Positions 10,754-63,892 are shown, numbered from the whole stretch's first letter. The stretch: DNA of 63,948 nucleotides, filler included, from Kipferlia bialata (GCA_003568945.1; 5 parts of 5 records of this genome joined end to end with filler, not necessarily neighbours in it); one strand, 5' to 3'. Notes: generated by a model from the sequence alone, not told the origin. Numbers and translations: made by a program.

Positions 10754-13700
10754 ATGAGTGGGTATCCCCCACCACATGGAGGGGACTACCCAGCCTTTGT
10801 GTGAGTACCACTACACTACATCATTTGCTCGCCGATGCTCCTCTACTGGCGGAGTGTACATGACCATTCATACACAACTATATGTCTTTCCCGTTGTCGC
10901 CGCTCACTCTCAGGTCGCAGGTTATGGAGCTGACTAATCAGCTACAGACCCGAGATGACTACTTGAGGCAGCTACAGGTAGCCTGTCACAGAAGTACACA
11001 CTCTTTCCCGCTTCACAGTGTCTGCTACATATCATATGATTACTGACTTCAGGCTGAGTATGAACATGTCCATGAGGCAGTGGGCGAGAGGGATCGGGTA
11101 TGATACCAACCTTTGGAGTGCATCTCTCTTCTATTACCACACTTCCCATGGTATTTTCCAGTATCCCTCCCCCTCACCTATGCACTCTCAGTGGCCCATG
11201 GTGACATAGAACGGCTGACATTGAGTGAGGCCGCTCTGAAGGAGAGAGTGGGAGACCTGACAAATACCATCACCGTGAATGAGGTATAGTCGGTGGCGCT
11301 CACATATGCATCAGTTCCACTCTTGTCTCTGTTCTCAAACCCAGGCGTCCCTAAACCAGTGCAAGATAGAACTGGTGACCACCCAGGCTGCAGTGGCGGC
11401 TCTTGAGACCGAGCGGGACAGATTACTGGCAGAGAGAGACAAGGTATGCTTCGTCTGCTTCTTGTATATCCGAGCATGTATGGCGAAGATTGTTATGTGG
11501 ATGCCCTATTCTTACGCATGTATTATGTTGATCTTGCGTGCTGAAATGGGATGGAGCATGGTGTAGCATGTCCCTCTACTGGGTATGAGTTCAATCCCCT
11601 TGTGCATCAGAACGCTATCCTTACCTGAAACCCAATGCACTTTCATACATGGACCTTCACTTCTCTATACATACCTTGCTGATAGTGCTCTTTAAGAGTA
11701 CCAAGTCTGTAGTAATGCTGGTATATTGGTCACTTATAGTAATATGTAATTGTTCTATCATACCACAGTATTGGGTGCACTGAGCGTGCTTCATAGAGGC
11801 TGTATATGACACTATTGTCTCTTTTCCCATGTATCTCCTACCCCTCTGAATCCAACATATATGTATATCTTCATACCCTGACCCCAGGCACAGGCTGCCT
11901 CTATCACAGAGGTCAGGGGCAGGGAACGGGCCCTTCTGGAGTGTCAGAAACAGTTGCAGGTCCAACACTATAGTAGTCAATGTGTATTGTATATAGGTGT
12001 ATTCGATTACTATATACAGCTACTATGAGGTCTGGTACAACAGTAAGACAAGCCATAGTATTACTTTGTTCGCCAGACGACTTTTGCGACTACTGAGCTA
12101 GTACTCATTGGTAATATACATATATAGAGTGTTGTACTCCAAGAAATCACTACATAATATATACACTGTGTCCCTCATTCTGATACTCCAGGCCGAAACT
12201 GCCGTGCGGCGACGGTTGGAGGCCTCTATTCTAGAGTCTGAACGGGAGAGAGACCTGAGTGATAGGGAGAGAGAGAGAGCGGCGGAGAAGAGAGAGAGAG
12301 AGGAAGCAGACAGACTCCGGGACATGGAGCGTGAGCTACAAGAGACCACCATAAGGAGGGGTCAGCTGGAGGATGAGGTCGAGGTGTGTGGATGTGCAAT
12401 GGTTGTATATGTGTCATCCCAGTACTACTTCTACCATTTACCGTGTATCTACTCATATCATAATATTGACGATCATCTATGGTCTCTTGACACTGCTCCT
12501 GACTCCTCACTGTCTAGGATGCCAACAGGGTGTGCAACGGACTGAGGAAGGACCTCCAGGCCCTGGCAGCACAGCTCGAGGCCAAGGGTGAGTCTGTCTG
12601 TCTGTGCACGGTCCCTATCTCTCCCTCTCTCTCTCTCCCTCTCTCTTCCTGTCTCTGTCTCTCCCTGTATCTCTCTCTCCCTCTCTCCTCCTGTCCCTCT
12701 CTCTTCCTCTCTCTCCCTGTCTCCCTCTCTCTGTCTCCCTCTCTCTGTCTCCCTCTCTCTGTCTCACTGTCTAGAGCGGCAGAGGCAGCAGGATGCGGCC
12801 ACCCACGCAGAGAGAGAGGCCGAGCACGCACAGGCCGAGAAGGGTTACAGGAAGGAGGCCAGACAGCGGGACCAGGCCATAGACGCAGCGCAGAGAGACA
12901 GTGCATCGTGCAGGGCACAGCTCGACAGGCTCAAGGTGGGGGTGGCTCTCGTTGGAGTTCCATTATGATCAGTGGCATTTGTAAGATCCATGGAATATGT
13001 GTCAAATACATTTGTTCTACTACCTAGATCATCATACACCATCTAACATCTTCAATACCATACATGGTATTGCAGACCCCCTAATGCCCATATGTCTGCA
13101 TGCTCTAATGCCCAGGAGGAGCTGAGGAGAGAGAGAGACCGGGAGCAGGAGAGGCTACACGCTGTGGAGGGTGTGGTTAAGGACAAGGCGGCAGCCCAGA
13201 GTGTGCTGGACGGGGTCAGGTACTAGTCAGGGTGTCGGTATACATATATATATATATACACTATGTAGCCCGCAGTGGTAGAAGGCTACCATGCATAATC
13301 ATGTACTCACCTATCCAGAAAGCAGGAGCGTCAGTTGAAACACCAGTTGGAGCAGGCCTTGCTAGAGGGAGAGAGACAGGTGCAGCAGGTGGGAAGGGTG
13401 TTCAGAGAGAGAGATATATACGTGCACTCGTAGCTGTTCCCACACACATTGTGCTACACATTGTGATACACATTGTGATTATACACATTATGATTATACA
13501 CATTATGATTATCTCTATACATATCCCTGTGCTGTTGCCCCCTCTGACCCCTCTGACCCCTCTGACCCCAGACTGTGTCTCAGTACGAGGCCAAGCTCCA
13601 CAAGACCAGGGCCTCACTGGAGAAGGCACGCCTCGCAGGTACAGAGTAGATTAGTATATGAGTAGTACATGAGTAGTATATGGTATCTAGTGCTGTTTGA

Positions 13701-16274
13701 GAAGGCACGCCTCGCAGGTACAGAGTATAATTAGACACCTGCTACTTGTAAATTGGTACATGATTACATGACCTCTACCATGGCCTCCTCTCTCTGACCC
13801 CCTCTGACCCCCTCTGACCCCCTCTGACCCCCTCTGACCCCCTCTGACCCCAGGCCAGGTGTCGTCTGACGAGCTGAGTGCCTCCACCCAGCAGGTCGAC
13901 ATGCTCCGCCAGCAGCTGGGCAGGATGAGTGCGGCCCTGGCCCTCGAGAAGAAGGTAGGGGTGGATGGTATAGGGGGAGGCATGTATATGTGGGTAGTAG
14001 TATGCATAGGAGTTCTGGAGTACCTGTAGTGTAGTATATGTATTTGTATGCATACCTGCCCAAGGAACGAGTAACATTTCATGTTTCGGTAAGCATTTAC
14101 TCCCTGAGTATAAAGGAGAAGTATGTATATATGTATGAAGAGAGACAGAGACTGGCACAGTAGGATATCCCGCCCTCTGACTGTGAAGGAGACATGTCAC
14201 TGTGTATCCTCTCTATATGTCCCTACTTTGTGTATGTGCATGTGCGTGTGTGTATGTGTCTCCCTCCCTCTGACTGTGCAGGAGGTTGACAGGCTGAGGC
14301 AGGAGACCGTGTCCCTAGTCGATCAGGTCCAGGCAGCAGACAAGATGCGCATGGTGATACAGGTACGCATCGGTTGGTTGGATAGACAGACATAGGGATA
14401 GGGATAGATGGACATAGGTATATGGATAGATGGATGCGCATAGTGACATAGATACAGGATCATATTTGTACATGAACATATTTGTGTTTTCTAATGAGGC
14501 ACTATACTATGTTATACACTGATACTATGATATTGTACTTTCTTCTAGGTATATACTTATATATATATATGTATATCCTGATACCAGGATATGAAGCACC
14601 ACCTCCAGGCCTCGACCGAAGACCTCCAGGTACATCGTGGTTATGTGTGTGTTTGATGTTTGATTTCCTCGGATATTTGCAGTCAGATATGGGCATATGA
14701 CAACTATGTGTATATTCCACCCATGTCTGTCCCTCCTGACCCACAGACCTGTGAGCAGGCCCGGGCCCAGTGTCTGATAGAGTTGGAACAGGCCCGGGAG
14801 AGTGAGACCGAAGCCAGACGGACAGCCCAGGTACATGGTGCATAGTGGATAGTGCATGGGAGACATGAGTGGTACTGTCAGTGTCCATGGCGTAGTGTGT
14901 GCATACACGTATATGCCTGGTCTCTCCCCATCTGTCCCTGTCTATAGCTGTCTGACCCGGCAGGAGTGGGAGAGAAAGGCAGCCCAGGAGCAGGTCACGT
15001 CGTCCAACGCAGTACAAGTACTGCACAGGTGGGGTGGATATACTCAGTATCAGTATGGATATACTCAGTATATATACATTGTAGAGTCTACATATACGTA
15101 TGTGCATGTATACTGTATACCCCTTTAGTGCAGGTGCTGCACGGGTGGGGGGTGTATATACTCAGTACACGAATGGGTACTCTATATATACATATCTGTC
15201 TGTATGTACTACATTGTGAGTGAAGTGTGGAATCCACACTGTGGGTATTCCTTATCCCGCCTCCCATTGCATTGACTGGCCCTCTGACCCCTCTATATGA
15301 CACTGACCCCTCTGACCCCTAGGGCCCAGCAGCGCATGGAGCAGCTCAACACAGACGCAGACCTCAGGTAGGGGGAGGGGGTATATGGATAGGGTCTATG
15401 TGCATTGATACTTCTATATACCTATATGTCCATACCCATATGTACGTCTGCCCCTACCTGACCCCAGGGTGTCGATGGTGGAGAGGAAGTGCCAGGACAG
15501 GGTGTCAAAGGCAGAGCAGGAGACAAACAGACTCAGGTACATGGCACTGTACCAGATAGTAGTGTGATGTATATGTATATGTATGGGGTGTGCCACGGCC
15601 ACTGCTGTTCATGTACACATATGCATGTATATATGAGTATTCCTATATATATATATCAGCCATATATCGCACTACCTCCACTGACACCCCCTCAGGGTGG
15701 ACAGATACGAGGGACTGCCTTCCCATAGTCAAGTCACAGTTCCCCTCCTATGTACTATGTACTATGTGCTATGCCTATTCTCATTCCAGGATGGAGCTGC
15801 ACTCCTACCGATCCGCAGAGGCACGGGCCAAGGTGGGTGGGCTTGTGTATACAGGATATGTATACTATGAGTATTGTATTATGTACATACTATTGTGTAT
15901 ATATGTATGTATGTGTTGACCAACCGCAGGACTCCCAGCGCGTGGCCCTTGCTGTGCGGGTGGGTACGGCTGGGCTCAGAGGCAGGGAGGATCACAAGAG
16001 AGAGAGAGAGAGAGACGGCTATCATGCCCCCTCTCGCTCACTGTCTGTGTCGGCCGAGCCCTACAGAGGGAGGGAGAGAGAGAGAGAGATGGCAGCAGAG
16101 AGGCAGCCCAGCGACTTCGACCGGTTGACATCCAAGTGAGTGAGGGTATTGTATATACACTGTCAGTCCACTTCTCTCTGTTATATATCTACTCTCTGTT
16201 TACACACAATGACACTGACCCTGACCCCTAGGCTAAGAGAGGCAGGAGACGAGATCCGCCGCAATATGCGATAG
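10754..16274 (+). CDS. long coiled-coil protein, multi-exon, function unknown
   Basis: ATG 10754 (MSGYPPPHGGDYPAF) splices into VSQVMELTNQLQTRDDYLRQLQ. Many short E/Q/R/L-rich heptad exons follow. Ends EIRRNMR-TAG 16272-16274. Confidence 0.75.
13792..13853 (+). repeat. 6 x 10-bp tandem (CCTCTGACCC) repeat of the branch-point motif, ending in the 3' splice site
   Basis: Read directly. A 3 x 9-bp version lies at 13541-13571. Confidence 0.9.
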
Positions 16275-16845
16275 GATCCATGTGTGGCTGCTGCTCACAT
16301 ACAGTGCTTACTCCATCCTTACTGCACTATTGTGGTATATGGGTTAATGGCCTTTGTATCAGTATTTCTTTACTATTAGTTCCATTATTTCGGTTAATGT
16401 ACACTGATTTGATCTATACTTCTTTAGGCTACTGAGTATCTGTTTCATAGAGATAGAGATACGAGTGAATCTGAAAGTTCGTTAGACGTTGACTCAGATC
16501 GGAAGGCCCCCGTCGTGTAATACGTTGTAGTACTTGACCAAACCAATGCGTAGTACCTGCAAAAATCCTCATATATAATGGGAACACATTCAATGCCGGA
16601 GCAGGCGTAGGTCTACTACAGGGCCAGTCTGTGTCAGAACCCATGTCCGTATAGGTTATGAGTCCTCAGGCACTTCCACATATTCCACCTAGTGTCATTG
16701 CTGGTCCAAGACAGTGTGTGACAAGCTGGCAACTTGAAGCAGCCTTGACAGGCTTGACTCAAAAAAGCAGAAGGGTTTTGTCCCCAATCTATTTTGAAAT
16801 TTGGGTATCCCCGTAGATCTAGTGCTCTCCTCTCTCAGCCATGCC

Positions 16846-18263
16846 ATGACGGGCACCACACACGGCATGCAGTATGGACCCCCTGGGGGTACCCCTCCGT
16901 CCCCCCCTCTCACTGTGCAGGGTGCGGGGTCTGGGCCCTCCCCCCCTTTGGACACTGACCCATGGGCCGCGTGGGACGGGCTGCCTCTGCAGATACCTCC
17001 AGCACCCATCTATGACGACACCGGAATCGCCCCAGCCAGCTTCCAGTCCCTGGTCCCGCTCAGCGTCAAGGGGCCTCAGATGGCTGTGCAGCACTGGACA
17101 GCCCTCAACACCCCCCTCCTGAGACACGATGAGGGCCTGATGCTGGGGGACAGCGGGTTTGAGCCTGTGTCCCAGGTCATCCGGCAGCTGTCCCAGTACC
17201 CGCCTCCCCCCATATGCCCTGTGTCTCATACTGAGGCACAGCCCCAGGTGCCTGGGGTTGCCTCTCCCAGTGCTGGTGATACCCCCCCTCTGGAGTCTGT
17301 TGTCAATAGCCATGTGTCACACAGTGTGGGGCAGGACAGGGGGGACCAGGCTGGGTCACAGTGTCCGGACTACCCCAGCAGCAGAGGGGCCCCAGCCATC
17401 GGGTCTCTGCTGCGGGTGAGGCACTCAGCCGCCGTGCGCCGCACCCTGCCCCTGTCCTTCTCCCTCACACCCCCCGCGGACCAGCTCTGGCTGCCTCAGG
17501 TATATAGGGTGGATATATGTGTGTACGTGGTATATGTACTCATACGATACAGCCTCAGATATCTAGATGTTATATATAGTTATGTTCTTCCTGTGTTGTG
17601 TAAGGAATGGGGTCCCTTGTGAAAGGTGTGACTCCCGACCGCCAGCCTCTCTCTCTCTCTTCTTCCTTACCCTCCCCCCCCCCTTCCTCTCTCTCCCTAG
17701 GTGTCTGCCAAGCCACATGCCCACACTCTTGGTGTCTATTATTACTATTATATGCATAGTAGTATATAAGAGTGTTCATTCCAGGTGTCTGCCAAGCCCC
17801 ATGCCCTGACCCCCCTGTCCCCCTCCCTCCACATCAAGACTGTGTGTGAGGGTGCCCCCCCTGCATTGAGTGAGGGGCACCCCTACATCAAGACACCCCA
17901 CCTCTACGCAGCAGAGATCCAGGTGGGATCACTCGTAGTGCATTCCCCGCAGTATAGGCTGACAAATGTAGTAGTTTCTTCTTGAGCTACACATACTTTT
18001 ACATACCCCTCCCTTGTAACATGCATTACACTATGTGTCAGTGTGTGTGGCTGACCCCAGGCCCTGTCCAGCCAGGGCATTCCCGCCAATGTCACAGAGC
18101 CCCTGGGCCTCAGAAGGTCAGGGGTGTAGTGTGGTTGGCGCCCTGTTGGGGCATTTAGAAATATATATATATTCATTCGCCTAGTTGGGACAGTGTTCAC
18201 CAATCAATCAAGAATATCCCAGAAGGTGATTCTCTCCACCGATCTATAGATATACCTCCCCCC

Positions 18264-19304: not shown

Positions 19305-22300
19305 ATGCCGAATACCGGGTCTGACCTGCGTCTGACCTCTCAGTCACTGGGGCCCATCCTCAGGACAGGCAACCTGAGGGCCGTGGTGACTGCCCAGCCC
19401 CCTGTGACGCGGCTGTCTCTCTCCCACAATGAGATTGTGAGCATAGATGTACCACAGGTGAGAGTGCACCACAATGTGTATTACTATTGCTCCTTGTCAT
19501 TCCATCCCATTCTGATCCCTAGCGCTTCCCCCACCTGCGGAGCCTTGACCTGAGCTACAACAGACTTAGTGGGGTGTTCAGCCTCGGTCTGCCACTCTTT
19601 GTCAACCTGACAAGGTGGGTATGCATGTATAGTGTCTGAGTCGGTACCGGTACCACATTCATAGTAACACACCAAAGCTGTACCAATGTGTATCTATACA
19701 CATTGAATGACTTCAGCCTCCCTCTATCTGACTCTCTAGATTCTAGGTTTTCTCTCAGAGGGAATGCCATCAGACTACAATCTGTCTCTCTCTCTCTCTT
19801 ACTCTGACATCTAGGCTGTCTCTTCGTGGGAATGCCATCAGACGTCTGGTTGGCATTGAGAAGCTCATATACCTGGAGACACTGGTGCTGGACAACACTC
19901 AGATCAAGCACATCAGGTATAGAAGGATGTGTATTGTTGTATAGACTCACAGACACATGTTCATATAAATAGCCCCAGGGATGTCCTCCCCCAGAGGCCG
20001 TCTATATATTGTGGAGGGGGAGCCTATATTTTGTATGTATATACTAAGAGTATATGTGTAGTATGCACATCCAACCCCAGGGATGTCCTCCCCCAGAGGG
20101 GCAGGGGCCACCGTGCCCTTCGCTCTCTGTCCATGAGGGGGTGTCCACTGTCAACACCACACGATCTGGTTCTATTGAGAGGTATGTGTATAGTACATAG
20201 AGGGTGTATCAGTACATAGAGGGAGAGGGGGAGGGAAGGTATGTGTATGGTTATGTCTGTATGGTCGTCACTGGTATCCCACGTGTCCCCTAGTCTATAT
20301 TATACACCTTCTTGTTCTCTCTCTCTCCCCCCCTCCCCCCCCCCTCTCTCTTCTATCACGTATATCCTCACCCACCGGCTGCCAGTCCCTGAGTGGAATC
20401 TCTCTCTCTCTCTCTCTCCCCCCCCCACTCTCTCTATATATACCATAGGTGTATCTCTTACCCCAGGCTGTCCCTCCCTGCAGTCCCTGAGTGTCACTGT
20501 GCTGGTGGACAGAGAGTTGCCCCAGAGTAGAGTCAAGAGGTATCATTGCAGTGTATAGTAATTGGGTTATATACTATATATTATTTATTATACTGCACTG
20601 TGCTGGTGGACAGAGAGCTGCCCCAGAGTAGAGTGAAGAGGTACTATATTGCAATTGTATTGATTATAGTGTACTAATTGCATCCCTCACCTTAGGGAAG
20701 AGAAACTAGTGCGTTCCTTCTGCGCCGCCACCTTCAAGCTGCGTAAGCTGAGTGTGGAGGTGCTAGGGGGCGCTGAGATGGAGAGAGAGACGGAGAGAGA
20801 GAGACTGAGGGAGTCCCAGAGGGAGCAGGAGAGAGAGGAGAGGGAGAGAGAGAGGGAGGAGAGTGTGGAGCAGCCCCCCTCTCCTACTATTGTGTCATGC
20901 ATAGCCCATGGGGCAGAGAGGGAGGGGCAGAGGATAGGGGGGAGCTCCTTCTTTGCCCAGCAGACACCGATGTCCCATGTACAAAGGGTGCAGGAGAGTG
21001 AGAGGGAGAGAGAGGAGGCAGAGAGGGACATCCAGGTACGGTGGCATCATATATACACATATAGTATAGTAGTATATTGAAGAGTTAGTGAGTATAGAGT
21101 ATATTTATATATAGATGTATATGTATATATTATATATGTATATATAGTACATATATATACTAATATGTTTATACCCCTCGTCTAACATGCAGGTAGAGGA
21201 GGAGAGACCCGTGGAGTATGGCCTGACACCCTCAGTCCATGTACCAGTCCCACACCCCACACACACACACACCTTCATGGAGCCCCAGGGAGAGAGAGAG
21301 GGAGAGAGAGAGGGAGAGGAGGATGTCATTGAGGTCGAGGAGGAGGGGGAGGGAGAGAGAGACCACCTTGGGGCATCTGCCGGTATAGAGGAGGAGAGAG
21401 AGAGGATACGGGGAGAGGTGGACGGCAACCTGCAGAGCCAGATCCTGGACGCCTTCCTCGGGTCGGTTAGGTATGGGTATAAGTGCATATATATATATGG
21501 ATTTCTTTTGAATATATTATATTATATATAGGTGATTGATATGGGTATTGATGTATACATGACCCTTCTCATTCCAGGTACCAGGAGATTGAGCCTGAGC
21601 ACGCTGAGACCTCACCTGTGATAGAGACAGAGAGGGAGCCAGAGCGGCATGTAGACACTGACCTCTACGCCAGCCTGGAGAGAGAGAGACAGGTGGAGGC
21701 AGAGGCAGAGAGGGCTATTGAGAGAGAGAGAGAGCTATCGATGCAGAGGGAGAGGGAGAGAGAGGAGGCCCGGCAGAGAGAGCTGGAGGCAGAGGCAGAG
21801 AGGGAGAGAGAGGCCTACGAGAGAGAGGTGCAGATGCGACTCGACCGGGAGAGGGAGATGGAGAGAGAGAGAGAGAGAGAGCATAGGGAGGCCAGTCTGG
21901 AGTATGGGGCACCCCAGCCCCAGCACGAGGAGGAGATCAGCGAGGAGGTATGGTTGTACACTCATATATATGTATATATATATGTGTGTGTGTGTGTATG
22001 TGTGTGTGTCTTTGCTGTGATTACCCCCAGGTGTCCATTGACATTGAGGTTGAGATGTATATGTATGTGTGTGTGTGTGTCTATATGTGCTTACATCTAT
22101 TATATTCATGTGTCTATATGTGTCTTACTCCAGGTGTCCATTGACATTGAGGTTGAGATGTCCAGTGAGGAGGAGAGAGAGCTCGAGAGGCAGTCCATGC
22201 TGGAGATACAGGTACACAAACAGTAATATAGTTTATAATGAAGACGAAGAGTAATATATATATATATTCCATGTTGTACTATCTGTATGCTATTTTTGAC

Positions 22301-24436
22301 TATCTAGGCCTCCTCCAATGTGACCCTGAGTGCCCTGTCCCTGGAGGCAGACCCACACACAAGGTATATAACAGTATATATACACACCGCATATATAGGT
22401 ATATAATGGGGAAGAGAGAGAGAGGAATACTGAGTGCCCTGGAGGCAGACCCACACACAAGGTATGTACACATCGGTATTACTATATATTTTTCACGGTA
22501 TATATGATACATGTTCTGATACTGATACCCCAGGACGAGTGGCCTTGCCTACTCCCCCTACCACGGTGCCAGGGCATTAATGCCAGAGCAGACATGGGAC
22601 AGGGAGAGGGAGATGGAGAGAGAGAGAGAGAGCAGTGAGAGGCTGGTGGATGCCATGCTGGAGAGAGGGAGAGACAGGGAGAGAGAGAGGGAACGCAGCG
22701 CCTCCCGTGCTAGGGCACCCCTAGTGCTACCCGATGTACACTCCACTCTAGCCATGCACTCACCCCCTATTAACACCATGAGAAGGAGTGTGTCGGGGGC
22801 ATCCATAGACGAGGGAGAGAGGGAGAGGGAGAGGGAACAGCAGACTCAAGAGTTCCTCCCCCACTCCCCCCCTCTCCCCCCTCCCCTTGCCCTCCCCCCC
22901 TCCATGACCTCTGGTGCAGTGCCCCCCAAGACACCGGTGCCTACTATGCCACAGCCAGCACTCTCACTGGGTACGGTGTGTATATAGTATGTATATATAC
23001 GTGTGTGTGTGTTATATTACTATGTAGTGCCATACTCACCCACCCCAGGCATGTCCCCCGGTGAGTATGGCCTGTACCCCAAGGCACTGCTGAGGAGGGT
23101 GGCTGTGTCAGTGGACGCCATACTCACAGGGCAGGAGGGGGAGGAGAGAGAGAGAGAGGTGGAGAGGGTGGCTGAGGGAGAGAGAGAGCCCATGGCGGTC
23201 AGGGAGAGACACCAGGGCGTGGGCTCCCTAGAGCTAGACCTGATATCCCCTGTAGTTGCCATACCTGCCCAGAAGAGCAGGGAGAGAGAGAGAGAGGCCC
23301 CCCGAGAGGGTGTGTCTTCCTCCCTGTACCATGTAGACATGATGGCGTCGGATGAGGTCATATTGGGTGGAGAGAGAGAGATTGAGAGAGAGGTGACACT
23401 GGCATCAACGGCAGGGGTCACGGCCAGACAGGATGAGGGAGACAGAGAGAGTATCTACAGTGCAGTGGGTGCCCCTGTGCCCCTCTCTGACGTTGTTGTA
23501 CCCCCCATGCCTGACATGTCACCAGCTGGGGTCTCTACCAACATTGGCCTACCCCCTACCTCCAGTGCCAGTGCTAGTGCAGCAGAGACTAGTGTACCTA
23601 CTGCACCCGAGGGTGACACTACCACATCTACCGCCACTACATCTACTTCTCTAGGTGTGGGTGTACCCCCTGGGAGACTAGGGAGGGAGATGTCTGTGGA
23701 GAGTGTGCGTCGTGCCTCCAGACTGTCTCAGATGACCACAGTCATACCCCTTGCATCAGACAACGATGCATACCTAGGGGTGTCAGACAGTGAGAGCAGT
23801 GAGAGCAGTGAGAAGGAGGAGGAGGAGGAGGAGGAGAGAGACACCACCCCCGAGGCCGTTGTAGAGAGTGAGGGGGAGAGAGAGGACTCTGAGGTCTCCC
23901 TCAATGACTCCCTGGTCATACCCCCCATGCCTGAGGATGACCTGGACACCCCTATCACACTCAAGGCAGGGGGGGGCAAGAGAGAGAGAGAGAGGAGGGA
24001 GAGGAGGCCTCTGCTGGCTGATGACATCCCCCCCATGCCTGGGTCAAGGTCACCCTCGCCCTCACCCTCGCCCTCCCCCACCCCTACTCCCAAGGCTCTC
24101 ACCTCTGTGGACCTTGAGGACCAGGACGAGATCACTCCCATCCCAGACCGCTTCACACCCGTACCCGCCTCCCTGTCTCTACAGCCCATGACCCCATTCA
24201 CAGGGGCAGTGGGAGAGGGAGAGGGAGAGGGGGAGAGAGACATGGAGAGGGTGCGCCCCCACCCCATTGTGCTCCCTGTCTCAGATACTGAGGGGTCTGT
24301 GCCACCGGGTATGCCGTCCATATACCCTGCCACATCCAGTGTGCCAGCGCTGGTGCCCGCTATGGTCCCTGCCATGGTCCCTGCTGCCTCACCCGCTGGC
24401 AGTGGCAAGCCCCATCCTCTGCCTCCCATGCCTGTG

Positions 24437-25678: not shown

Positions 25679-25813
25679 CGGCCCCTGTCCCCTCTGTGGC
25701 CCCCCCCCCCCCCTCCTCGTCACTCCCAGTTCTCTCTCCTCGAGGCAGAGCTCTATATCTCTCTCTCTTCCCTAACTCCAAGTCCTCTCTCCTCGAGGCC
25801 CTGTTTTCGGTAG

Positions 25814-25844
<31 letters not shown>

Positions 25845-28800
25845 GTCCCTCACTCCCAGTCCTCTCTCCTCGAGGCCCTCCTCTCGGTAGTCTCTCTCTC
25901 TCTCTCTCCCCCCCTCACTTCCAGTCCTCTCTCCTCGAGGCCCTCTTCCTCGTCCTCTCTCTCTCTCTCTCTCTTCTGATATCAGTCCTCTCTCCTTGAG
26001 GCCCTCTTCCTTGTCCTCTCCGCCTCCCCTGCACCCGATGTGTCTGTACTCAGAAGGAACAGCAGTGGAGATGTGGCATCAACTGCAGAGGTATATATGT
26101 ATATATATATCATCATCTATATATGTGTGTATGTGTGTATGCGTTTGTATATGAAACATTGTAGACGTCACATAAACCGCTGTCTCCTTCCTCACCGCTC
26201 TCCCTCTCCAATCTGGATCGGTGTTACCCCACTCCTGCCGCCTATTTATATCTCCCTCTCCCTGACTGAGTGACTCTCTTTCTCGTGTATCCCTTTCTTT
26301 CTCTATCCCTGACCCTAGATAGTGTCACCTTGGTTGGCAATGACCTCTCCCTCCCTCCCTCCATCTCTCTCCCCCCCCCTCTCTCTCTTCATAAATATAT
26401 ATTTGTCTCACCCCAGATCAGTGTCACTCTTGTAGGCAATGCCCGGTACATGTTTGACCCCTCGTCCACCCTGGTCATATCACTCACGCTGGTATGTCAT
26501 GTATATATACTATATATATAGTGTATATATATATATATTCGCATTGTGTTAATAATACGACCCCTCATCCACCCTGGTCATATCACTCACGCTGGTATGT
26601 TACATATACAGTTGCATACACACATATATGTGTATGTTGTGTGTCTGATACATGTTTGACCCCTTGTCCACACTGGTCATATCACTCACGCTGGTATGTG
26701 TATAGGTCATTCAATATGGCTAGTATGTATGTCTCTTCAATGTTTGACCCCTCATCCACCCCCACATCATACTGACTCTGCGTGTGCATCAGTATGTTGT
26801 ATATGTGTCTCACCCCCCAGATCTGGTCAGGGTCAGGCCTCAATGCAGTGTATATACATATGAACAGTATCTATATATTCCTATATATATGTATATAGTG
26901 TTTATGAACAGTATCTATATATTCCTATATATCAGTATGGTGTCTATATTGTATCTCACATTCCAGATCCGGTCAGGCACAGGCCTCAACGCAGTGTACA
27001 GACTCAACGGGAAGAGAACACCCTCGGCATCTGTGCGGTGAGTACACTTATTAATGTTTGATATTCATATATTGCAATCATATAGCAAGATGTACTTCTT
27101 CTCTCTAACCCCAGGTCCTTCCTCCATGCCAACAGTGCGCTGCTCACATTCCCAGCATCGTACATCAGGCAGAACACAGGTATATGTTTACAATACTAGT
27201 TTAGAATATGATATGTATATGTATAGGTAGCATCATACATCAGGCAGAACACAGGTACACTTGTTAGCATATACAATGCTTTATGCATTAGTCATACAGA
27301 GGATGTGTTTATATTATGATAGATATATACTATACTATAATAGTTATCTCTCTCTCTCTTTGTCTGTCTCTGTATGTATACATTACTCACCCTAGTCTCC
27401 GAGCTGTTTGGCACCGGGGGCACTGGCTCTAACACTTGAATATTCACTCTATAGATAATATATATACTATGTGTGTGCATGTATTGTATCACATATATCA
27501 CTCACCCAAGTCTCTGAGCTGTTTGGCACACATATATATACATATGATGTTTCATATATATATATATATTCATCACTCACCTAAGTCTCTGAGCTGTTTG
27601 GCACCGGGGGCACTGGCTCTAACACTTGAATATTCACTATATATATATTATGTATACTATGTATGCATGTATTGTATCGTATTTATCACTCATATCAGTC
27701 TCCGAGCTGTTTGGCACACACATATATGCATGTATTGAGTCATATTTATACAATTATCATTCATATCAGTCTCTGAGCTGTTTGGCACCGACACATATTC
27801 ACATGATGTTTCATATATATACATATACTTAATGCTCACCCTAGTCTCTGAGCTGTTTGGCACCGGGGGCACTGGGTCCAGTGCAGTCAGTGACACAGTC
27901 AGCACAGTCAGGGTGCTGCAGGTATGGTTATGCATATATGGATATGGGTATAGTTTTATATAATCGGAGGGAAAGAGTGATATGTGAGTGACACAGTCAG
28001 CACTGAGGGTGCTGCATGTAAGCTATTGCTATATTCTCTGGATTATTTGTATTGCTTCTAGTATATACATCTACTCTCGTCTATCCCCGGGCCGTCACTG
28101 GTCGGTCTGATGACTCTGCCGAGAGAGAGACACAACTCTATGTACTGTTATATATATGTATGTGTATATGTGTGTAGATTATATACATAGTGACTCACCC
28201 CAGGCCGTGACTGGTGGGTCTGATGACTCTGCCGAGAGAGATTCAACTCTATATACTATTATATATATATATGTGTATGTGTGTGTAGAGCATATAGACC
28301 TACTTATCCCCAGGCCGTGACTGGTGGGTCCGATGACTCTGCCGAGAGAGAGACACTACTCTATATATACTACTATATATATGTGTGTGTATATGTGTAC
28401 ATAGTATATACACCTACTTACCCCCAGGCCGTGACTGGTGGGTCCGATGACTCAGCCGAGAAGGGCATCAGAGAGAAGCTGGACAGGACTCTGGTTGCAC
28501 AGAGGTCTACCAAGGTAAATATGAATATGTGTGTAGTATATACATTGATACATGTGTTTATAAGGGTATGTTCAGAGAGAAGCTCGATAGGACTCCAATA
28601 GTACAGAGGTCAACTAAGGTACATTGACAGTGATATTAGTGTCTATGAGTGTATATGGCAATATAACACTATCAGTATACGTTGTACCAGTGCCAATGTC
28701 AGTGATGTGGATATCCACAATATATGCGTTTAACCCCAGGTCAGCATCGATGCCATGGAGGCCAGGATAGAGGCACAGCGCAGGTATTAACAATATGTAT

Positions 28801-29461: not shown

Positions 29462-29498
<37 letters not shown>

Positions 29499-30994: not shown

Positions 30995-31032
<38 letters not shown>

Positions 31033-43139: not shown

Positions 43140-43195
<56 letters not shown>

Positions 43196-44292: not shown

Positions 44293-44330
<38 letters not shown>

Positions 44331-47516: not shown

Positions 47517-47903
47517 CTCCCTCCGTCATATTCTCTAGCATTTCCAATGCATTCAATACCAACCCTCACCCTCTCTCTCTCTCTCTCTCTCTCTTCCTTG
47601 TACAGATATACCCATATCCCAGTACCAGATTAGATGGGTCCTATCTCTACGTATATATACAATATATGTGTATTCATGCATACATACCTTTATCCCCAGT
47701 GCCTCTAACCGCTCAGAGGATTCTCTCTCTCTCTCTCTCTCTCTCCCTCTCTCGCTCTCTCTCTCTATATATATATATCCTATCTATACCCTTTCCATCA
47801 GTGCCTCTGCTGACTCCTCAGAGGTGACGCTTTCTCTTTCTATCTCTCTCCCTGTATCTCTCTCTCTCTATGTATACACATATTTGGGTATGTCTTACCC
47901 CAG

Positions 47904-48422
47904 TACCTCTGACGAGTCGTCAGAGGAGATGGGTCTGGAGGAGCTGAGGGAGGAGGTGAGACACACCATATACACATCAATATGTATATGGTTAAATATA
48001 TATACGTATTTATATATATGATTACATATGTACATTGTTCACTGGGTCTGGAGGAGCTGAGGGGGGAGGTGAGACATGTATATTTATAAATTTCTCTGTA
48101 TATATAGTGATGTATGTATATATAGTTTGATGTGCACACATTCATCCACTACGTTAATACACATACAGTCTCACATATACGTAACCCCTAGGTCCTGTCC
48201 GACCTGTCTAAGGGTAGATACAGACAGGCGGCAGAGAGTCTAGATGCTATGGCTAGGTATAAGATAGTGCATAGTTGGAATCCTATACATTCATGTGTGT
48301 ATAGTTTTATGTAAGTAGCTATATACCCAGTGTGCAGCTGATAGCCTCAATGATATGGCTAGGTACACCATAGAATATTGTATGAGGTCATTTTACGTAA
48401 AAATAGAGTGATTGTATTCTCT

Positions 48423-48455
<33 letters not shown>

Positions 48456-48758
48456 GACACCACTGCACTGTGATAGAGTGTACACAGAGGTACACTTATG
48501 GATGTATCTGCCCTATTACAATGTAGAATTCATATATAATTAACCCCACAGAATCCACCTCTCCTCTGGTGATCTAGAACAGGCCCTGGACCATCACTCG
48601 ATGGACATGAGGTACTGGTGTAATAATGCATACATAATAATTGTGCATTTATAGTAGTAACGCATTTATAGTACTCAATGGACATATATACAGTTTGTGC
48701 ATATTTCATGTCCACTCCCTAACCCACAACTGACACCCTCCCCTCATTGTCAGGTGCT

Positions 48759-48789
<31 letters not shown>

Positions 48790-49596
48790 CCCCTCATTGT
48801 CAGGTGTTCCTTCGTTGCTGAGGCTGACAGCTACTCTAAGACAGGTATGATGGGTAATACCCATACGCTGCATACGTTGTATGTATGAATGTACATTCAT
48901 ACTCATCTATCCCTGTGCTTTCAGACTGCTCTCATCAACTGTGCTAGTGCTGATACCACATAGACTATATTCTCTATATGTATGTGTATAATGTCTCACC
49001 CATGCCTCCTGACTGCCCTCCTCAACTGTGCCAGTATCATGTATATTAACATATTACTCTCTCTCTCTCTCTCTACACTAATGTCAACGTAAATTTCTAT
49101 TTCTTAATCTAACCCCCATGTCTTCTGACTGCCCTCCTCAACTGTGCCGGTGTGTGGTCTGACATGGGCAATGCAGAGTGTGCACTGTGGATGTACCAGG
49201 TTCTCTCTCTCTCTCTCTCTCTCTCTCTATACTCTATACTATATAATAATACGTGTAGTTAGTATCTGTTCGGATCTCCTTTTACCCCCTAGGAGACCTT
49301 CCGTACACTCCAAAGATGTATTCGTACCTAGTTTAGTGCAGTCAGTTTGGTATATACTTCGTTCCTTTCTATTTCCATTTATCTTAAACCTAGGAGACCT
49401 TCCGTACACTCCAAAGGGCAGTGGTAGCTGGCGGTATATACAAGGGAGTGCCACCGGCGTCGAGGCGAGTGTTGTATGTATGTATATATATATATATATA
49501 TATACACACACATATATATATACAGATATATATATATATTTGTGTATATACTCCTATACTAACTACCAGACCCCAGTACAGCAGGGGTACACGACT

Positions 49597-49646
<50 letters not shown>

Positions 49647-52600
49647 CCGTATATATGTATATACACACTAACTACCGACCCCAGTACAGCAGGGGTACAC
49701 GACTATTCATATATATGTATATATATGTATATATATATATACATGTATATATATGCATATATATATATTCCTAACTAACCCCCAGACCCCAGTACAGCAG
49801 GGGTACATGACTATACATATATATGTATATATATGTATACATGTATATATATATATAATATACACTAACTAACCCCCAGACCCCAGTACAGCAGGGGTGC
49901 AGTTCGAATGGTGTCCTGTCTATACCAGTCAGTTACTGAGGGGTCTCTACCATACTCACCTGCCTATCTCGTACAGGATGCATACAGAAGGTATAGATAC
50001 TATGTATACTATGTATACGGTGTATAATCTGTGTACGCCCATAGTTGATGTGTGAATATCTCTCTAACCCCAAGGGTCTCTGTCTCCATAGGGTTTGGCT
50101 CTCTCTCCCTCTCTAGACGGGGTGAGCTCTTACTGTCCCTGCTTAGACTTTCTCTGTTGATGGGGGGTGATAGACAGAGAGGAGCATGGGGGGTTATGGG
50201 TCAGTATACGCAGACACTGACTAGAGTGTTGGAGAAAGAGGGTGTTGAGGGGAAAGAGAGAGAGAGAGAGACCGAGGAGGAGGAGAGAGATGCATTGGTG
50301 TCCTTGAGAGCAGAGATGGCCACTCTACACGCCAGTTCACTAGGTGGGTGTATAGTGTGTATACATATAGAATTATATGTATGGTGTATGGTGATGCACC
50401 TAACCACAGGGCTAGCAGGCTATCTAGCCGAGGGTGCTGCAGTGTACAGAACCATATCACAGTGGCCCACCACACCCTCTGAGGATAAGGGGCATGCTCT
50501 GATGGCATGTGCGAGACTGATGCTCCAGTTGGGGAGGTGAGTAGTGTGTATGTGTACTAGAGTGAATGAATATGTTCTTTGAATGCCTATATACCGTGTC
50601 CAGATCCAGTTATGGACCAGCTGGAGGTGGATGATACTAGATACATGCGTACTATGAATGGTATGCTGACCCACACACACACTCTCTCTCTCTGACCCCT
50701 CCAGCTACGAGGATGCAGCGTCTACCCTGGATGAGTGTGCATCCCTTGAGTGGTCAGGTGCCGTACCTGGTTTCAGGGAGGCCTGTCAGGCATCGGTTCA
50801 GGAAATGGTTCAGTCAGATAGGTTTGTGGCAGTAACCATTGTGACACACACAGATACAGTACCATTGGTATGTGGTAATGATGGTATGGTTAATTACACT
50901 GACACCCCAGCTCCCTTGACACCTCCGTGCATTCTGCTCTGTTCAACCCATCCGATATATCAACTGCACTGGATACACTAGATGCACATCTCAAGGGCGG
51001 AGTGTCAGGGGCTCCACGGGTGTTCACCCACCTCATGATCTTGACTGAGTTGCTGGAGACTGTTATTCAGGATGGATACACGGGTACATACTTGAGATGT
51101 CGCCTTTCTGCAGTGTATGCAAGAGTGGCTGAGATCACTGACAGTCTGAGGTATGATGTGTGTGTGTGTCATGTATATAGGTACATGTATATAGTTACGA
51201 TCACGTCTAGAGTATGTCCTCTTTCACCCTTCAGTCAAAACTCTAGGTGCCTGATTGGTTCCCCTAAGGAATCATTAGATATCATCGTTGAGTGTGAGAA
51301 GCAGGCAGTCGCCCACTACGATAGTCTTCCCAGTGTCGGAAAGGTGTGGCAGGCTTACATCTTATTCCGACTGTCTCTCTTCAGTTGTTGGTCCTCGTCT
51401 CACGCTCAGGCATCCTCTCTCGATAGTGTTCTAAGGTGCCTGAGGCATTGTCTAGTGGCCAGACTGAGAGATGGTCAGTCAGCTGCTAGAGACCCTTCCC
51501 AGTCAACTACCACCACTGGTGCGTCCACTGCTGTGCATCCCTATAGGATATATAGGGTTGTATCATGCAGGGACCATATGGTGCTAGACCGGTTGGGTAG
51601 CATAGAGTACAGGAGCAAGGGAGGGAAGAGGAGGGCCAAGAGCCAGGGGTCTCTGCCTGATGCCCATACAGTGTACAGTGACACTGCCTATCTGCTGGGG
51701 TCTACTAGCTCATCTACACCCAAGATATTAGGGGTGGGGGTGGTTGACATAGACTACACCTCTATCCTGAGGTATGCCAAACACATGTTTGTACTATATC
51801 AACGTGTCTGTTGCTTCTCATCTCATCCCAGTATATACTCAGACACCCTGTCTCAACTTGAGCACCTTCAGAGTGCCGGTGACATAGATGCCACTGCTCC
51901 CTCAGTCAAGGCCGTACTTGTATACAGAAGGGGAGAGGGGGAGGGAGAGGATGCAGACACCAACTGGTGGTATCATGCACTCAGGTATTGTAGATTCGTT
52001 GTGTTGGTCGTTATTGTAAACACATACAAGATCGCATAGTTTCAGCGATTTGCCACCTCCTTTTGTTCTACTATAATATACGTACTCAAGATACTATCCC
52101 TGCAGGACTATGCGTTCCGATATATATATGTGTACATATTCATATACAATAACCAATAACCATCGAACCAGTCTAACCCTGTAGGACTATGCGTTCAGAT
52201 CTCATCCATGCCCTTAGTCTGTGTCAGCCGAAGGGGGAGACTGATGATGCCGTAGAGCCTTGGCTGCAGACCCTAGCCAAGGATGACTCAGCCATGAGGA
52301 CACAGATACTACACATGCTCAACAGGTGGGTGGATAATGTGTCTATGTGTCTCTAGTCTCTAGTGTAGGATCAACACCCGCCGATGACACTTCAGTATAC
52401 GATGTGTAGTAGACGCAATGAATATACTTTCTATGCTAATGTATCTAATACTCAATATATATATATATGTGCCCTTACGCTCAGGATCAACACCCTCCAG
52501 CCCATGGCCACCCTATTAACAGAGGGTGCATCAGACATTACTTTGGGCAGTATGGCACCGGAGTACATGGTGGGGAGGGTATTGGGGTCAAAGGGTCACA

Positions 52601-55779: not shown

Positions 55780-55888
55780 ATGATGGTACCACCAAGTGGT
55801 CATACAATCCGCCCAGAAGATAAAGTGGCCTGTAGCCACCAGTAAGGTCTATATACACACTTGCAGCACAGAGCACCCCAGTGCATAC

Positions 55889-59191: not shown

Positions 59192-60664
59192 CTATGGAGA
59201 GTGGTATGGCATCTTGCCCAGCCACTCTCTGTCCATGGCTGCAGAACCCATGAGGCCCATGTACCCATCATCACCCTGGGGTAAGTCAGACAGTTATATA
59301 CTAGACGGCTGAAGGGACAGCTGAATCATAATACTCAATGGATATTCCACCATTACCTCGCTGTCTTCCTCCCCTCTAGCCCACGCAGACATTGACCTTG
59401 CAAATCGTGCATGCCTGGGGTCACCGACTAATGGTACTAAGAAAGTGTGACGGAACGCAATTCGTGTATGTGTATGACCTAGAGGGTACAGAGAGAACAT
59501 ATGTCGTGTGCATGTCTGGTATCAGATATCACACCTGTCGTCACAGGTGGCCACTGCAGCGTATCTCTCCATGGTCTCAGCACAGCCCTCGGGGGAACTC
59601 GCCCTTCCAGTACCCTTGCCCCTGTAGGCTACAGCCTGCATATACAGGGCCTGGTGTAAGTCAATCATATCTGTATATAGATATATTGCGTAAGACACAC
59701 TAATTGCCTTCTTTTCTTGGGTTATGTACTGAACTAGAAGTGCTGAATGCATGTGTGAAGTGTAGAACACACCGAAAGTTATGATTGCATTTGAAGTGAT
59801 GGATACAACTGAAGTGATGGATACATTTGAAGTGATGAATGCACTTGAAGTGACAAATACACCTGAAGTGATGAATGCACTTGAAGTGATAATATAACTG
59901 AAGTGATGGATACACCTGAAGTGATAATATAACTGAAGTGATGGATACACTTGAAGTGATGGATGCACTTGAAGTTACAAATACACCTGAAGTGATGGAT
60001 ACAACTGAAGTGATGGTTACACCTGATGTCAGGAATACAACTGAAGTGCAGACAACACTTGGGCTAAGCAATGATTCTGGTACTGTGTCTGTAACCTGAA
60101 ACTTCTGCCACATTAAGATATGCATAGAGACAGAGAAGAACTATCTCCGATAGTACCTCTGGGAGGAAGCTCCCTGGCAGCTTCCCCGCCGCTATGTCGT
60201 GTAATATCTCTGTTGTAAAGATGACTGCCTTGGGGTGTGCCCCCAGGTCGAGGCATGCATAGGCCATGAACCACCGCACTGCCACCCTATCAGCCTCATC
60301 CGTCAGCACACTTCCACCGTTGTAGGCATCCATCACCTGGGGGGGTGGGGGGGGTTGGAGACGACAGAGAAAATGGAGATGTGCATAGGATTACATTCAC
60401 ATGCACTGCATACCTCATCCATGGCCATGGCCAGGGTCTTAGACGAGAGGGCACGCTGCAGCTTAAGGAAGCAGGAGACAATAGCTGGGGGCTGGATGTC
60501 ACGCAGCAGTCTGGGGGGAGGCACCACCAGCCTCAGGGTCACTATACAGGGACAAGTGCGTATGGCTGACACCAGTGCCGCGTATGGGTCTGTGGCCCGC
60601 CAGTTGTCAGTCTGCTGTGCCCTCTGGTGTGTGAGTCTGCTGTGCCCACTGATATGTATATATG

Positions 60665-61607: not shown

Positions 61608-61772
61608 CACGAGGACGAGGAAATAGTCATGGTATGCCATATGCATGAACAATACACATCTATAAGAGTATGTACCTGTCCCTCAATGTCCATGTACATG
61701 GACTACTAGGGCATATGCATATATATATATATATATATATTACTATACTCGTATACACGTATAGATATGTAC

Positions 61773-62470
61773 CTGTCCCTCAATGTCCATGTATGCCTCG
61801 GGGATGATGTTGGGGCCGTCATCGATGGCCTTGCCGGATCCGTTGAAGGACCTGGGGGGTCAGTACTGAATATACTTCATTGATGTGTCCATGATATACT
61901 AACTGATCCCTTATATACCTTCCGAGGATGTCCTTGGACACTCCTTTACAACCACAAAGATAAAGGAATACATATTCATACATATATACCTTCCGAGCAT
62001 GTCCTTGGACACTCCAATGCGCATGATGTCTCCGCTGAACTCAATGCCTGAGATGAGACACACATTAGTAATACACACAGCCAAGATATACCATAACCCT
62101 GCTATGGGGGCAGGTACGTTCCCAACAGTAGTTGATATAGACAGGTAGATGTACATGAATGTAGACAGACTAACGTACGAGTGTCACGGGCATCAATGTC
62201 ACTGGTTCCCTCGAAGATCTGGACAACAGCCTTGTCTCCGTGCACCTCAAGCACCTTTCCGGTACGCTTGCTTCCATCACCAAGGGTGACGGACACAATC
62301 TCGGCGTACTTGGGCTGCTGAGGGTGAGAAAAGGACGTTAGAAGCTTGCTGCTCACAAAAGTGGATAAATCCCCCACCTTGACCTTCTCCAGAATGACTA
62401 GAGGTCCATTGACCGCAGACACAGTCTGGTACTGGATCTGGGGCTTGATTCCGGTGACACTGACGCTCAT
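61773..62470 (-). CDS. ATP6V1B: V-type H+-ATPase subunit B, N-terminal exons (3'-truncated at the contig edge)
   Basis: [61 protein letters not shown]...[42 protein letters not shown]. Confidence 0.96.
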
Positions 62471-62646: not shown

Positions 62647-63008
62647 CTATTTTCGCATCCTCTCTGTCAGCCTATCTATCGCCCTAACCACCTCCTGCAT
62701 GTCTGCCAGTCTGGCATCGGCAGCCTCCAGCTCCACCCTGTCTCTCTCGCTCTCCCTCCTACTCTCTCTCTCCCTCTCAGCCTTGCTCAGTGTCTCCGCC
62801 TGCAACGCTTCCTTATCCTCTGCATAGGATGTCTTGGACAGCATCTCGGCATATCTAGGGTGAGGAGTATATATATATATGTATATATATATATATTAAT
62901 ATATATATATAGAAAGAGAGAGAAAGAGAGAAAGAGAGTATTTCGTACCTATCTCGCAAGGACCTCATTTTGAGTGCCGTGCTGAGCATGTCCTTTCTGA
63001 CAGTGAGT

Positions 63009-63051
<43 letters not shown>

Positions 63052-63383
63052 ATATACACTATTAGTATATATACTCATATACATATATACTGATACATAT
63101 ATAAGAATGATGTGCTGAGCATGTCCTTTCTGAAGAGTGGTATATGTCCATGCATACTAAGAATCTTTCTACACAACCACCACAAAAACCAATAATTCTG
63201 GGGTAAAGTGATGGTGCTGGACCAATTCTTTGCCATAAATACTATTCATGTGTTAGCTATTAATTGAATAGCTATGTATATACCTCCCAGACACCAAGTC
63301 GTCCTTCAGTGCAGATATGCATGGACTCTGCCCACTGTGCAACAGAGACCAGGCAAGGCTAGGGTGAGTGGATATATACATAA

Positions 63384-63415
<32 letters not shown>

Positions 63416-63790
63416 TAAGATGTACTCTGACCACTGGGCAACAGAGACCAGGCAAGGCTGAGGTTGAGTATATATATATATAGAGAGAGGGGGGGGGAGG
63501 AGAGAGAGAGAGAGTAAGATGGGCTCTGCCCACTGTGCAACAGAGAACAGGGAAAGCTAGGGTGATTAGGTATGCATATATGTACACATATAGAGACAGT
63601 GCCAAGGTATATCATAGTATTATGGAGTAGCATTATACTATTATACTATTATACTATTATACTATTATACTATTATACTATTATACTAATATACTATTAT
63701 GACTACATACATACCTTCCCATACTGCCATCCACACTGGCCCTCTCCCTCTCCCTCCCGCCCTCGGTGGCAGGGCCACGGGGGGTGGTGC
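62647..63790 (-). CDS. 3' exons of a coiled-coil hypothetical protein
   Basis: Terminal exon ...EALQAETLSKAERERES...LADMQEVVRAIDRLTERMRK-TAG, plus upstream exons with CTCAC/CTGAC-fused acceptors. Confidence 0.6.
63632..63700. repeat. 8-bp tandem repeat (ATTATACT)n, ~8 copies, intronic
   Basis: Read directly. Confidence 0.9.
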
Positions 63791-63799
63791 CTATGGTCA

Positions 63800-63830
<31 letters not shown>

Positions 63831-63892
63831 GTGTCCTCGCCACGGGAGGTGGTGCCTGGGGTGAGTATAAATTCAAGTATATGTACGTAAAT

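Follow-up and report, generated by a model that had tools for sequence, protein, structure and literature searches.

Exon stuttering was described in 2026, from chicken data, as an oddity of birds whose mechanism is unknown: introns on avian dot chromosomes carry partial copies of the adjacent exon, and intron length varies extensively within species (Hron et al. 2026, PMC12954441). Its authors name faulty meiotic strand invasion among the possible causes (PMC12954441). A related repair process is reported from flies, where aborted synthesis-dependent strand annealing (SDSA) is finished by alternative end joining that does not depend on ligase 4 (PMC8951532). Here, we describe a similar structure in a distant protist, the fornicate Kipferlia bialata. 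All counts come from a single 64-kb window, by which we mean the whole stretch of DNA analysed (63,948 nucleotides; five contigs of GCA_003568945.1 with spacers between them). In 42 of its 133 curated introns (32%), at least one partial copy of an adjacent exon edge, here called an echo, follows the live donor or precedes the live acceptor. Over the part with read support, the echoes exist in the actual DNA; they are skipped in the one transcript checked, and their codon pattern suggests that many of them were once coding. The original prediction, which drew attention to these copies from the sequence alone, knew of no named system of this kind; that part has been overtaken, as the structure matches exon stuttering as set out in the main text of the bird study (PMC12954441). 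No earlier report of echoes in protists or in Kipferlia was found in the open-access literature.

Structure and distribution of the echoes

The K. bialata genome is reported to contain 124,912 introns at 49.4% GC, with two k-mer peaks interpreted as diploidy (PMC5874029), and PMC6679479 served as spliceosome background only. Genes in the window are rich in introns, which are short, of the GT..AG type, and have a branch motif near the acceptor. The genes encode DNA polymerase B, SNF2, bicarbonate transporter, dynein light chain, and V-ATPase domains. Pfam searches with single exons named 7 of 11, and the tested single exons of models D, G, and J gave no match. Gene models were curated by hand and their open frames checked, with the exception of the polymerase gene (an automatic model); the curated set comprises 15 gene segments, and stretches at about 1-2,200, 45,300-46,000, and 55,700-60,100 lie outside it. 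The output of a self-trained gene finder was discarded because it fused the two strands and took echoes for micro-exons; the latter error is one that other gene predictors may also make. Reading frames are those of our own gene models, with confirmation from a spliced contig for six introns of one gene.

Each exon edge was aligned to its own intron using 266 edge probes of up to 60 nt, and 81 matches reached the retained score of at least 13. Among 3,913 probes taken from other genes, 0.36% reach that score, so that about one chance match is expected among 266. After removal of four matches to simple sequence (score 13 or 14), 77 echoes remained at 53 exon edges, of which 37 have one copy, 10 have two, five have three, and one has five. 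At all 25 sites or ranges listed in the original prediction, an exon edge is directly repeated, and its estimates of one to five copies at a spacing of about 70-140 bp agree with the measured spacing (median 101.5 nt, 10-90% range 71-124). Introns without an echo have a median length of 88.

Most echoes (72 of 77) extend to the splice site, and the splice dinucleotide is retained in 65 of these 72, as had been claimed: GT or GC in 30 of 32 donor echoes and AG or AT in 35 of 40 acceptor echoes. Echo donors score 5.2 (live 6.2, decoys -1.5) and echo acceptors 4.5 (live 5.8, decoys -3.0); because the scoring matrices were derived from the live sites at a stage when a few boundaries still awaited correction, the live scores are somewhat inflated. 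The exon-derived part has a median of 26 nt and a range of 10-58 nt at one edge only, as measured with probes of at most 60 nt; with these probes, no echo spanning a whole exon with both splice sites was found in the 133 introns. Where an intron carries both kinds, the donor echo precedes the acceptor echo in 10 of 10 cases. The echoes contain one stop codon against 3.0 expected.

Echoes are unevenly distributed among genes. Model D (25986..31455, +) hosts 24 of the 77 and model G (40697..44999, +) hosts 22, with echoes in 8 of 13 and 9 of 11 introns, respectively; the polymerase gene has them in 1 of its 24 introns, and the SNF2 gene in 0 of 7. Echoed exons are shorter than others (median 77 vs 139 nt), and TA-rich introns typify the echo-rich genes, even introns without a detected echo. 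Tandem repeats cover part of 19 of the 42 echo-bearing introns and of 9 of the 91 others (P=6e-6), although the median cover is 0 at score 50. Eight introns of 230-444 nt without a detected echo may carry older, decayed copies below the threshold.

Two sequencing runs of one sample cover part of model G and give read support over 40,700-43,380 (about 2.7 kb): X1, which provides DNA contigs, and X2, which we take to be RNA, a guess based on six GT..AG joints. A 1,776-nt X1 contig matches 40,700-42,351 with no differences or gaps across eight echoes, at a depth of 445 that falls within the 366-469 of the other single-copy contigs listed. Since X1 may be the source of the window itself, this comparison tests the assembly and not the strain. 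Exon-only bins each contain a single contig at depth 370-445 (15 of 71 pieces), and in these 15 pieces no second haplotype or paralogue of at least 85% identity over model G exons was seen. A 970-nt X2 contig joins the first donor to the last acceptor at 6 of 6 joints. Echo-specific bases, for which the original prediction had proposed a search of spliced sequence, are absent from it, and it carries live bases only; as contigs drop rare variants, minor use of echo sites may still occur. In this transcript, the outermost splice sites thus beat strong inner decoys in a short-intron organism.

The intron side of the echoes behaves differently from the exon side. In ungapped comparison, identity between echo and live intron flanks stays above background no farther than about 7 nt from the site in donors and 14 nt in acceptors, and only 12 of 72 intron sides lie above the 95th percentile of the null; the other 60 resemble the live intron no more than unrelated introns do, in agreement with the strong divergence noted in the original prediction. 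The same holds where the exon part is identical to the live exon, which is the case in 12 of the 77 echoes: among the 11 with identical parts of at least 15 nt, 9 have intron sides at or below that percentile. A few arrays are true tandem repeats with 78-92% identity, but with intron sides mostly unrelated, most units are not plain tandem copies. Echo junctions fall on dinucleotide-like exon 4-mers in 15 of 72 cases (8.0 expected, P=0.01). A fixed unit length was considered and rejected, as the lengths of echoes and of the fillers between copies are uncorrelated.

Codon pattern and origin of the echoes

The edge alignment, codon-position spectrum, and ratio of non-synonymous to synonymous divergence (dN/dS) that the original prediction called for were carried out within the window. 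With differences counted once per edge under strict trimming, echoes and exons differ at codon positions 1, 2, and 3 in 38, 26, and 103 cases, and 105 of 167 differences are synonymous (123 of 207 under loose trimming). A neutral copy predicts 45 synonymous differences, and a neutral copy compared with a constrained exon predicts 69; both are rejected at P<1e-5. Corrected dS is 0.28 and dN 0.041, giving a dN/dS of 0.15 (0.10-0.22, bootstrap over edges) and a dS-2dN of 0.20 (0.12-0.29). The value near 1 that had been proposed as the neutral outcome is too lenient, as about 0.5 is expected when a dead copy is set against an exon under constraint; the pooled data lie below this stricter value as well (P<1e-5), but those outside two genes do not.

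The excess of synonymous differences persists in donors, in acceptors, and with one echo per edge, and introns confirmed by the spliced contig show it too (24 of 36, P=0.0009). The zero-fold to four-fold ratio is the same for transitions and transversions (0.22 each) and is 0.21 when CpG sites are excluded; the mutation spectrum and CpG are thus ruled out as causes of the bias. Codon preference in the echoes was also rejected (54 of 105). Models D and G carry the signal, with 45 of 67 and 39 of 56 differences synonymous and a dN/dS of 0.11. Hence, the claim that the differences are mostly synonymous stands for the pooled set, whereas an excess over the appropriate null is confined to these two genes.

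Of the 30 changes at which the echo nearest the live exon differs from it while a farther echo has the live base, 20 are synonymous against 8.1 expected. A chain of self-copies in one lineage would make such changes neutral, which argues that the echoes had a coding history of their own. The amino-acid differences look otherwise: GC-to-AT changes outnumber the reverse 35:14 among non-synonymous differences as compared with 35:44 among synonymous ones (Fisher P=0.003), and the replacements are not more conservative than random (mean BLOSUM -0.71 vs -0.57 expected, P=0.77). Being AT-biased and non-conservative, they resemble neutral decay superimposed on an older coding divergence. Many echoes, so it appears, were once coding and are not coding now. 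The original prediction held that the echoes are or were under protein-level selection; the past tense is borne out in the pooled set and in two genes, whereas the present tense conflicts with the character of the amino-acid changes and with the spliced contig, which uses no echo site.

We favour the explanation that many echoes began as pieces of divergent working alleles, copied in during aborted homologous repair and then end-joined, and we put its probability at roughly one half. A break would arise in a TA-rich intron, and one end would invade the nearest exon of the homologous chromosome, this being the sole sequence shared. Copying would run through the intron of that allele and then 15-45 nt into the next exon, where annealing to a short, mismatched exon would fail and microhomology end joining to the other end would follow. 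The product would read own exon, splice site, and half-intron, then the allele's exon edge, to which its own splice site and intron are attached; acceptor echoes would come from the mirror event. Selection would act as a filter only, in that an acceptor echo placed before a donor echo would make a false exon and be lost. The echo would decay neutrally afterwards, and some units would be re-amplified in tandem, so that synonymous differences would mostly be allelic divergence from before the capture (about 0.2 per site) and amino-acid differences mostly later decay.

Among the three models of the original prediction, that of patches copied from divergent alleles is the best fit. In simple simulations made for this analysis, divergence at birth of 0.15-0.2 followed by decay yields a dN/dS of 0.20-0.26. 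In addition, the intron sides behave as diverged working introns even where the exon part is identical, which supports allele capture. The reported repair gene set of K. bialata is compatible in kind, with Ku70 and Rad51A listed as absent and four Dmc1 entries, PolQ, Msh2, Msh3, XPF, and Rad10 as present (PMC8516963), and in yeast, Dmc1-type residues are reported to help recombination at divergences of at least 20% (PMC6719624). A minority of echoes, perhaps most of those outside models D and G, may be ordinary self-copies.

Several observations weigh against allele capture. The 31 echoes outside models D and G show 21 synonymous differences of 44 (18.4 expected, P=0.25) and a dN/dS of 0.32 (0.13-0.73), for which the simple null is not rejected; the two genes and the rest differ (Fisher P=0.02), and eight hold-out echoes show 8 of 17. 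Of the 30 nearest-echo changes, 11 come from one array that is partly GA-rich, leaving 13 of 19 others synonymous. Synonymous divergence is not clearly overdispersed (P=0.08), whereas many events of differing age should spread it. Fillers under 34 nt occur in only 1 of 72 cases, a scarcity that random break positions do not account for; mid-intron breaks or selection against close competing sites are our guesses at its cause. The donor allele was not seen: 40,700-43,380 shows one haplotype, and two metagenome scans (224 and 332 pattern matches) yielded no confirmed relative. Moreover, an allelic synonymous divergence of 0.2-0.27 would stand at the extreme of known diversity.

The best surviving competitor, which we nevertheless consider unlikely, is that echoes are self-copies made by slippage or sister-templated stuttering, that their TA-rich fillers were scrambled fast, and that the live exon was later overwritten by short allele conversion tracts or changes faster at silent sites. 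Genes other than D and G fit this account without an extra step, and it is also in keeping with the tandem arrays, with the echoes whose exon part is identical, and with changes private to the live exon, 13 of 14 of which are synonymous. However, it demands an about fivefold synonymous weight (fitted 5.0, 3.7-7.0), where equal rates against a constrained exon permit 2; the nearest-echo changes would need the live exon to switch allele and then back; and the identical exon parts mostly adjoin unrelated intron sides.

The donors might instead be paralogues or homeologues, derived from hybridisation or whole-gene duplication, or the echoes might be stumps of duplicated, once-alternative exons. 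This would account for a long coding divergence with near-uniform dS and for a unit length near one intron, and model D does have a relative at 83% amino-acid identity, KIPB_001904. We rate this account as quite improbable, given that no second contig of at least 85% likeness was seen over model G exons although the echoes are mostly closer than that, that arrays contain three or more distinct versions, and that no echo spans a whole exon with both sites (probes to 60 nt). KIPB_001904 itself was rejected as donor, as it agrees with the live exon at the echo at 31042 and cannot be aligned to the echo-rich N-terminal part of model D.

Present selection, with echoes kept as reserve exon ends that become live through collapse or conversion, as diversification cassettes, or as sites of rare alternative or stepwise splicing, would explain the retained splice dinucleotides, the near-live site scores, the shortage of stop codons, and a spacing of about one intron. 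The two remaining models of the original prediction belong here and do not produce the pattern: simulated collapse with an echo becoming live gives a dN/dS of 0.52-0.57 and simulated conversion between echo and exon 0.54-0.95, so that concerted evolution and collapse are rejected against the observed value. By algebra, turnover slow enough to allow a dS of 0.2 would leave selection on collapse load ineffective. The distance between echo and live sites is a multiple of 3 in 19 of 72 cases, with the frame kept open in 9, and AGGT stands in both copies in only 4 of 77. Recursive splicing or intrasplicing was rejected, since echo ends score -3.0 as acceptors (true acceptors 6.7) and acceptor echoes start with GT in 6 of 40 cases as compared with 23 of 107 other exons. 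With non-conservative amino-acid changes and no echo site used in the spliced contig, we regard present selection as very improbable.

Finally, an assembly that joined two haplotypes or strains would give both synonymous bias and unrelated introns, and the short-read set examined over about 2.7 kb may be the window's own source, but a separately built contig spanning eight echo junctions without differences at single-copy depth, exon bins without a second contig, and both the arrays of three to five versions and the 10/10 donor-before-acceptor order, unexpected from a two-haplotype error, make this the least credible explanation.

Echo loci and neighbouring features

The coiled-coil gene (model A) has a donor echo at 13620..13727 (+), whose exon part is identical between the live end (13620-13644) and the copy (13699-13723), and another at 15011..15150 (+) with three synonymous and one non-synonymous differences. 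Model B has an acceptor echo at 17699..17806 (+) with one synonymous difference. The LRR gene (model C) carries two acceptor echoes within 19742..20099 (+), at 19742 (four synonymous, one non-synonymous) and 19973 (identical), a donor echo at 20495..20643 (+) with two synonymous differences over 45 nt, and, within 22027..22465 (+), an identical acceptor echo at 22027 and a donor echo at 22437 that is identical across the aligned 25 nt. Duplications mainly or wholly of intron sequence at 14168-14284 and 26859-26932 (+) resemble what is called 'intronic stuttering' in birds.

Upstream of model D, four acceptor echoes of exon 25986-26090 (25727..26023, +) belong to the hold-out set, as does the acceptor echo at 26313; the latter shares 26313..27003 (+) with donor echoes at 26559, 26642, and 26740, the last ending before the site, and an acceptor echo at 26817. 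In 27154..27878 (+), a donor echo at 27229 is followed by five acceptor echoes (27390-27790) whose fillers resemble one another, a sign of secondary tandem amplification. Next come a decayed donor echo with a 2-nt gap at 27984, acceptor echoes at 28085, 28198, and 28308, and a donor echo at 28572 with six synonymous and three non-synonymous differences (27886..28624, +). The region 28921..29575 (+) holds donor echoes at 29057 (eight synonymous, two non-synonymous, a 3-nt gap) and 29158 and acceptor echoes at 29309 and 29407 (together seven synonymous, none non-synonymous). Among three donor echoes in 29564..29918 (+), the nearest, at 29667, has synonymous changes where a farther echo retains the live base, and the acceptor echo at 31042..31167 (+) has amino-acid changes that are not found in KIPB_001904. 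The C-terminal 299 amino acids of model D are 83% identical to this K. bialata protein of the LBP/BPI family, which was the one match among 75 candidates in a protein search with one model D exon. Model D combines an echo-rich N-terminal part of about 207 amino acids, unrelated to the differing N terminus of KIPB_001904, with an LBP/BPI-type C-terminal part, and is either a chimeric gene or two genes fused by the curated model.

Model G, which we take to be arrestin-like from its motifs, is silent in Pfam on two single exons. The spliced contig joins its exons 40827-40892, 41233-41305, 41617-41672, 42018-42093, 42496-42591, 43041-43120, and the start of 43308-43386. The eight echoes spanned by the DNA contig and skipped by the spliced contig have their sites at 40996, 41050, 41393, 41498, 41779, 41890, 42217, and 42303 (40853..42336, +). 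Also skipped by the spliced contig are echoes at 42447, 42716, 42850, 42972, and 43228 and an internal fragment at 42751 (42444..43233, +). Further along, in 43337..44734 (+), are donor echoes at 43458, 43569, and 44004, acceptor echoes at 43751, 44138, 44258, and 44614, and an internal fragment at 44533.

In the remaining genes, model J (47799..49901, +) has echoes at 47799 (hold-out), 48043, 48334, 48748, 48911, 48999, and 49288 and a triple at 49566, 49677, and 49780; its nine main-set echoes show five synonymous and nine non-synonymous differences and thus no synonymous excess. Two donor echoes in the bicarbonate-transporter gene (model E; 32496..32682, -) have identical exon parts, and two in the axonemal dynein light chain gene (model I; 46974..47165, +) differ by four synonymous and no non-synonymous changes. 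Two short acceptor echoes lie in model J2, at 52100 and 52367 (52100..52498, +), and one in model L, 25 nt from the live site (60605..60651, -). The V-ATPase B-like gene (model M; 61670..62015, -) has donor echoes at 61944-61913 and 61696-61670, the latter identical and in the hold-out set, and model N (62972..63857, -) has acceptor echoes at 63133, 63459, 63562, and 63857 (hold-out).

Some features of these genes stand apart from the echoes. Possible GT..AT introns are suggested by AT, not AG, after a normal branch motif at 49118-49119 (+) and 34334-34333 (-); with these sites, the frames of model J are open and the bicarbonate transporter is complete at 1,066 amino acids, and one echo of the model J site likewise carries AT. 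A GC donor in model J at 49465-49466 (+) is demanded by the reading frame. The dynein light chain gene, 46137-47308 (+), lacks an obvious last exon, and a long poly-C run at about 47,430-47,515 downstream may hide an assembly gap. Finally, a degenerate intergenic array, whose short units measure about 18 nt as judged by eye, lies at 59756-60026, and, unusually for so intron-dense a genome, long stop-free frames without apparent introns span 56537-58084 (-; 516 codons) and 1371-1910 (+; 180 codons).

Comparison with known systems

Tandemly duplicated, mutually exclusive exons are adjacent copies that diverge under codon constraint, but each copy is a complete exon that possesses both splice sites and is put to use. 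Echoes possess a single site, span 10-58 nt of one exon edge, and are skipped at 6/6 joints; no echo copy was found in the spliced contig, in which rare isoforms would be invisible. Silent conversion cassettes, such as chicken pseudo-V genes, Neisseria pilS, and trypanosome VSG genes, are also non-expressed partial copies that may look constrained, but they serve one variable locus in which amino-acid change is favoured, whereas echoes sit in housekeeping genes and show mostly silent differences. Mosaic bases of the cassette type were not seen in the expressed copy in contigs, which drop rare variants.

Intron gain by tandem duplication of AGGT likewise involves a short intragenic duplication across splice-like signals (PMC3265369), but there a new intron is made from exon sequence, whereas echoes sit inside an existing intron; with AGGT seldom shared by both copies and no such joint in the gene examined, this origin was rejected. 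Aborted SDSA with alternative end joining resembles our proposal in that templated copying followed by non-homologous joining leaves a local duplication with a patch of the template (PMC8951532). That work started from engineered breaks, whereas the events proposed here would be natural and recurrent, would draw on divergent alleles, and would have left scars in a third of introns. It is possible, and we offer this more tentatively, that a lineage without Ku and Rad51 but with a mismatch-tolerant Dmc1 and polymerase theta routinely captures exon ends of long-diverged alleles; a third of its introns would then form a stacked archive of vanished haplotypes, recording, for a fornicate, hyperdiversity (a synonymous divergence of about 0.2) and cryptic genetic exchange, and exon stuttering would be driven by recombination between homologues. 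If allele capture is true, a single genome can reveal both the diversity of alleles and earlier genetic exchange, in a group whose sex is poorly documented.

The likeness to exon stuttering is the strongest. In the main text of that study, more than 90% of copies start within 1 base of the exon border and the exon part has a median of 36 bp (PMC12954441), comparable to the reach to the splice site and the 26 nt found here. Repeat-rich affected introns and a strictly local origin are common to both, with weaker repeat cover in Kipferlia (PMC12954441). In contrast, birds have 1-44 copies over a median of 1.75 kb where Kipferlia has 1-5 copies about 100 nt apart, and the setting is GC-rich with tandem-like fillers in birds but TA-rich with mostly unrelated fillers here (PMC12954441). 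Synonymous bias marks the Kipferlia copies, whereas the word 'synonymous' does not occur in the main text on birds, whose supplements could hold a codon analysis (PMC12954441). In the one sample covered, two defining features are thus shared, and tandemly related whole units occur in a few arrays; we therefore call the echoes a variant that functions in the manner of exon stuttering, not an established member of it. In birds, 190 of 5,572 dot-chromosome introns (3.4%) are affected (PMC12954441), and a share roughly ten times as large in Kipferlia suggests that such copies are a general product of repair in genomes whose short exons lie between unstable introns. The codon signature, moreover, allows self-copying and copying from the other homologue to be tested directly against each other, a test for which chicken data already exist.

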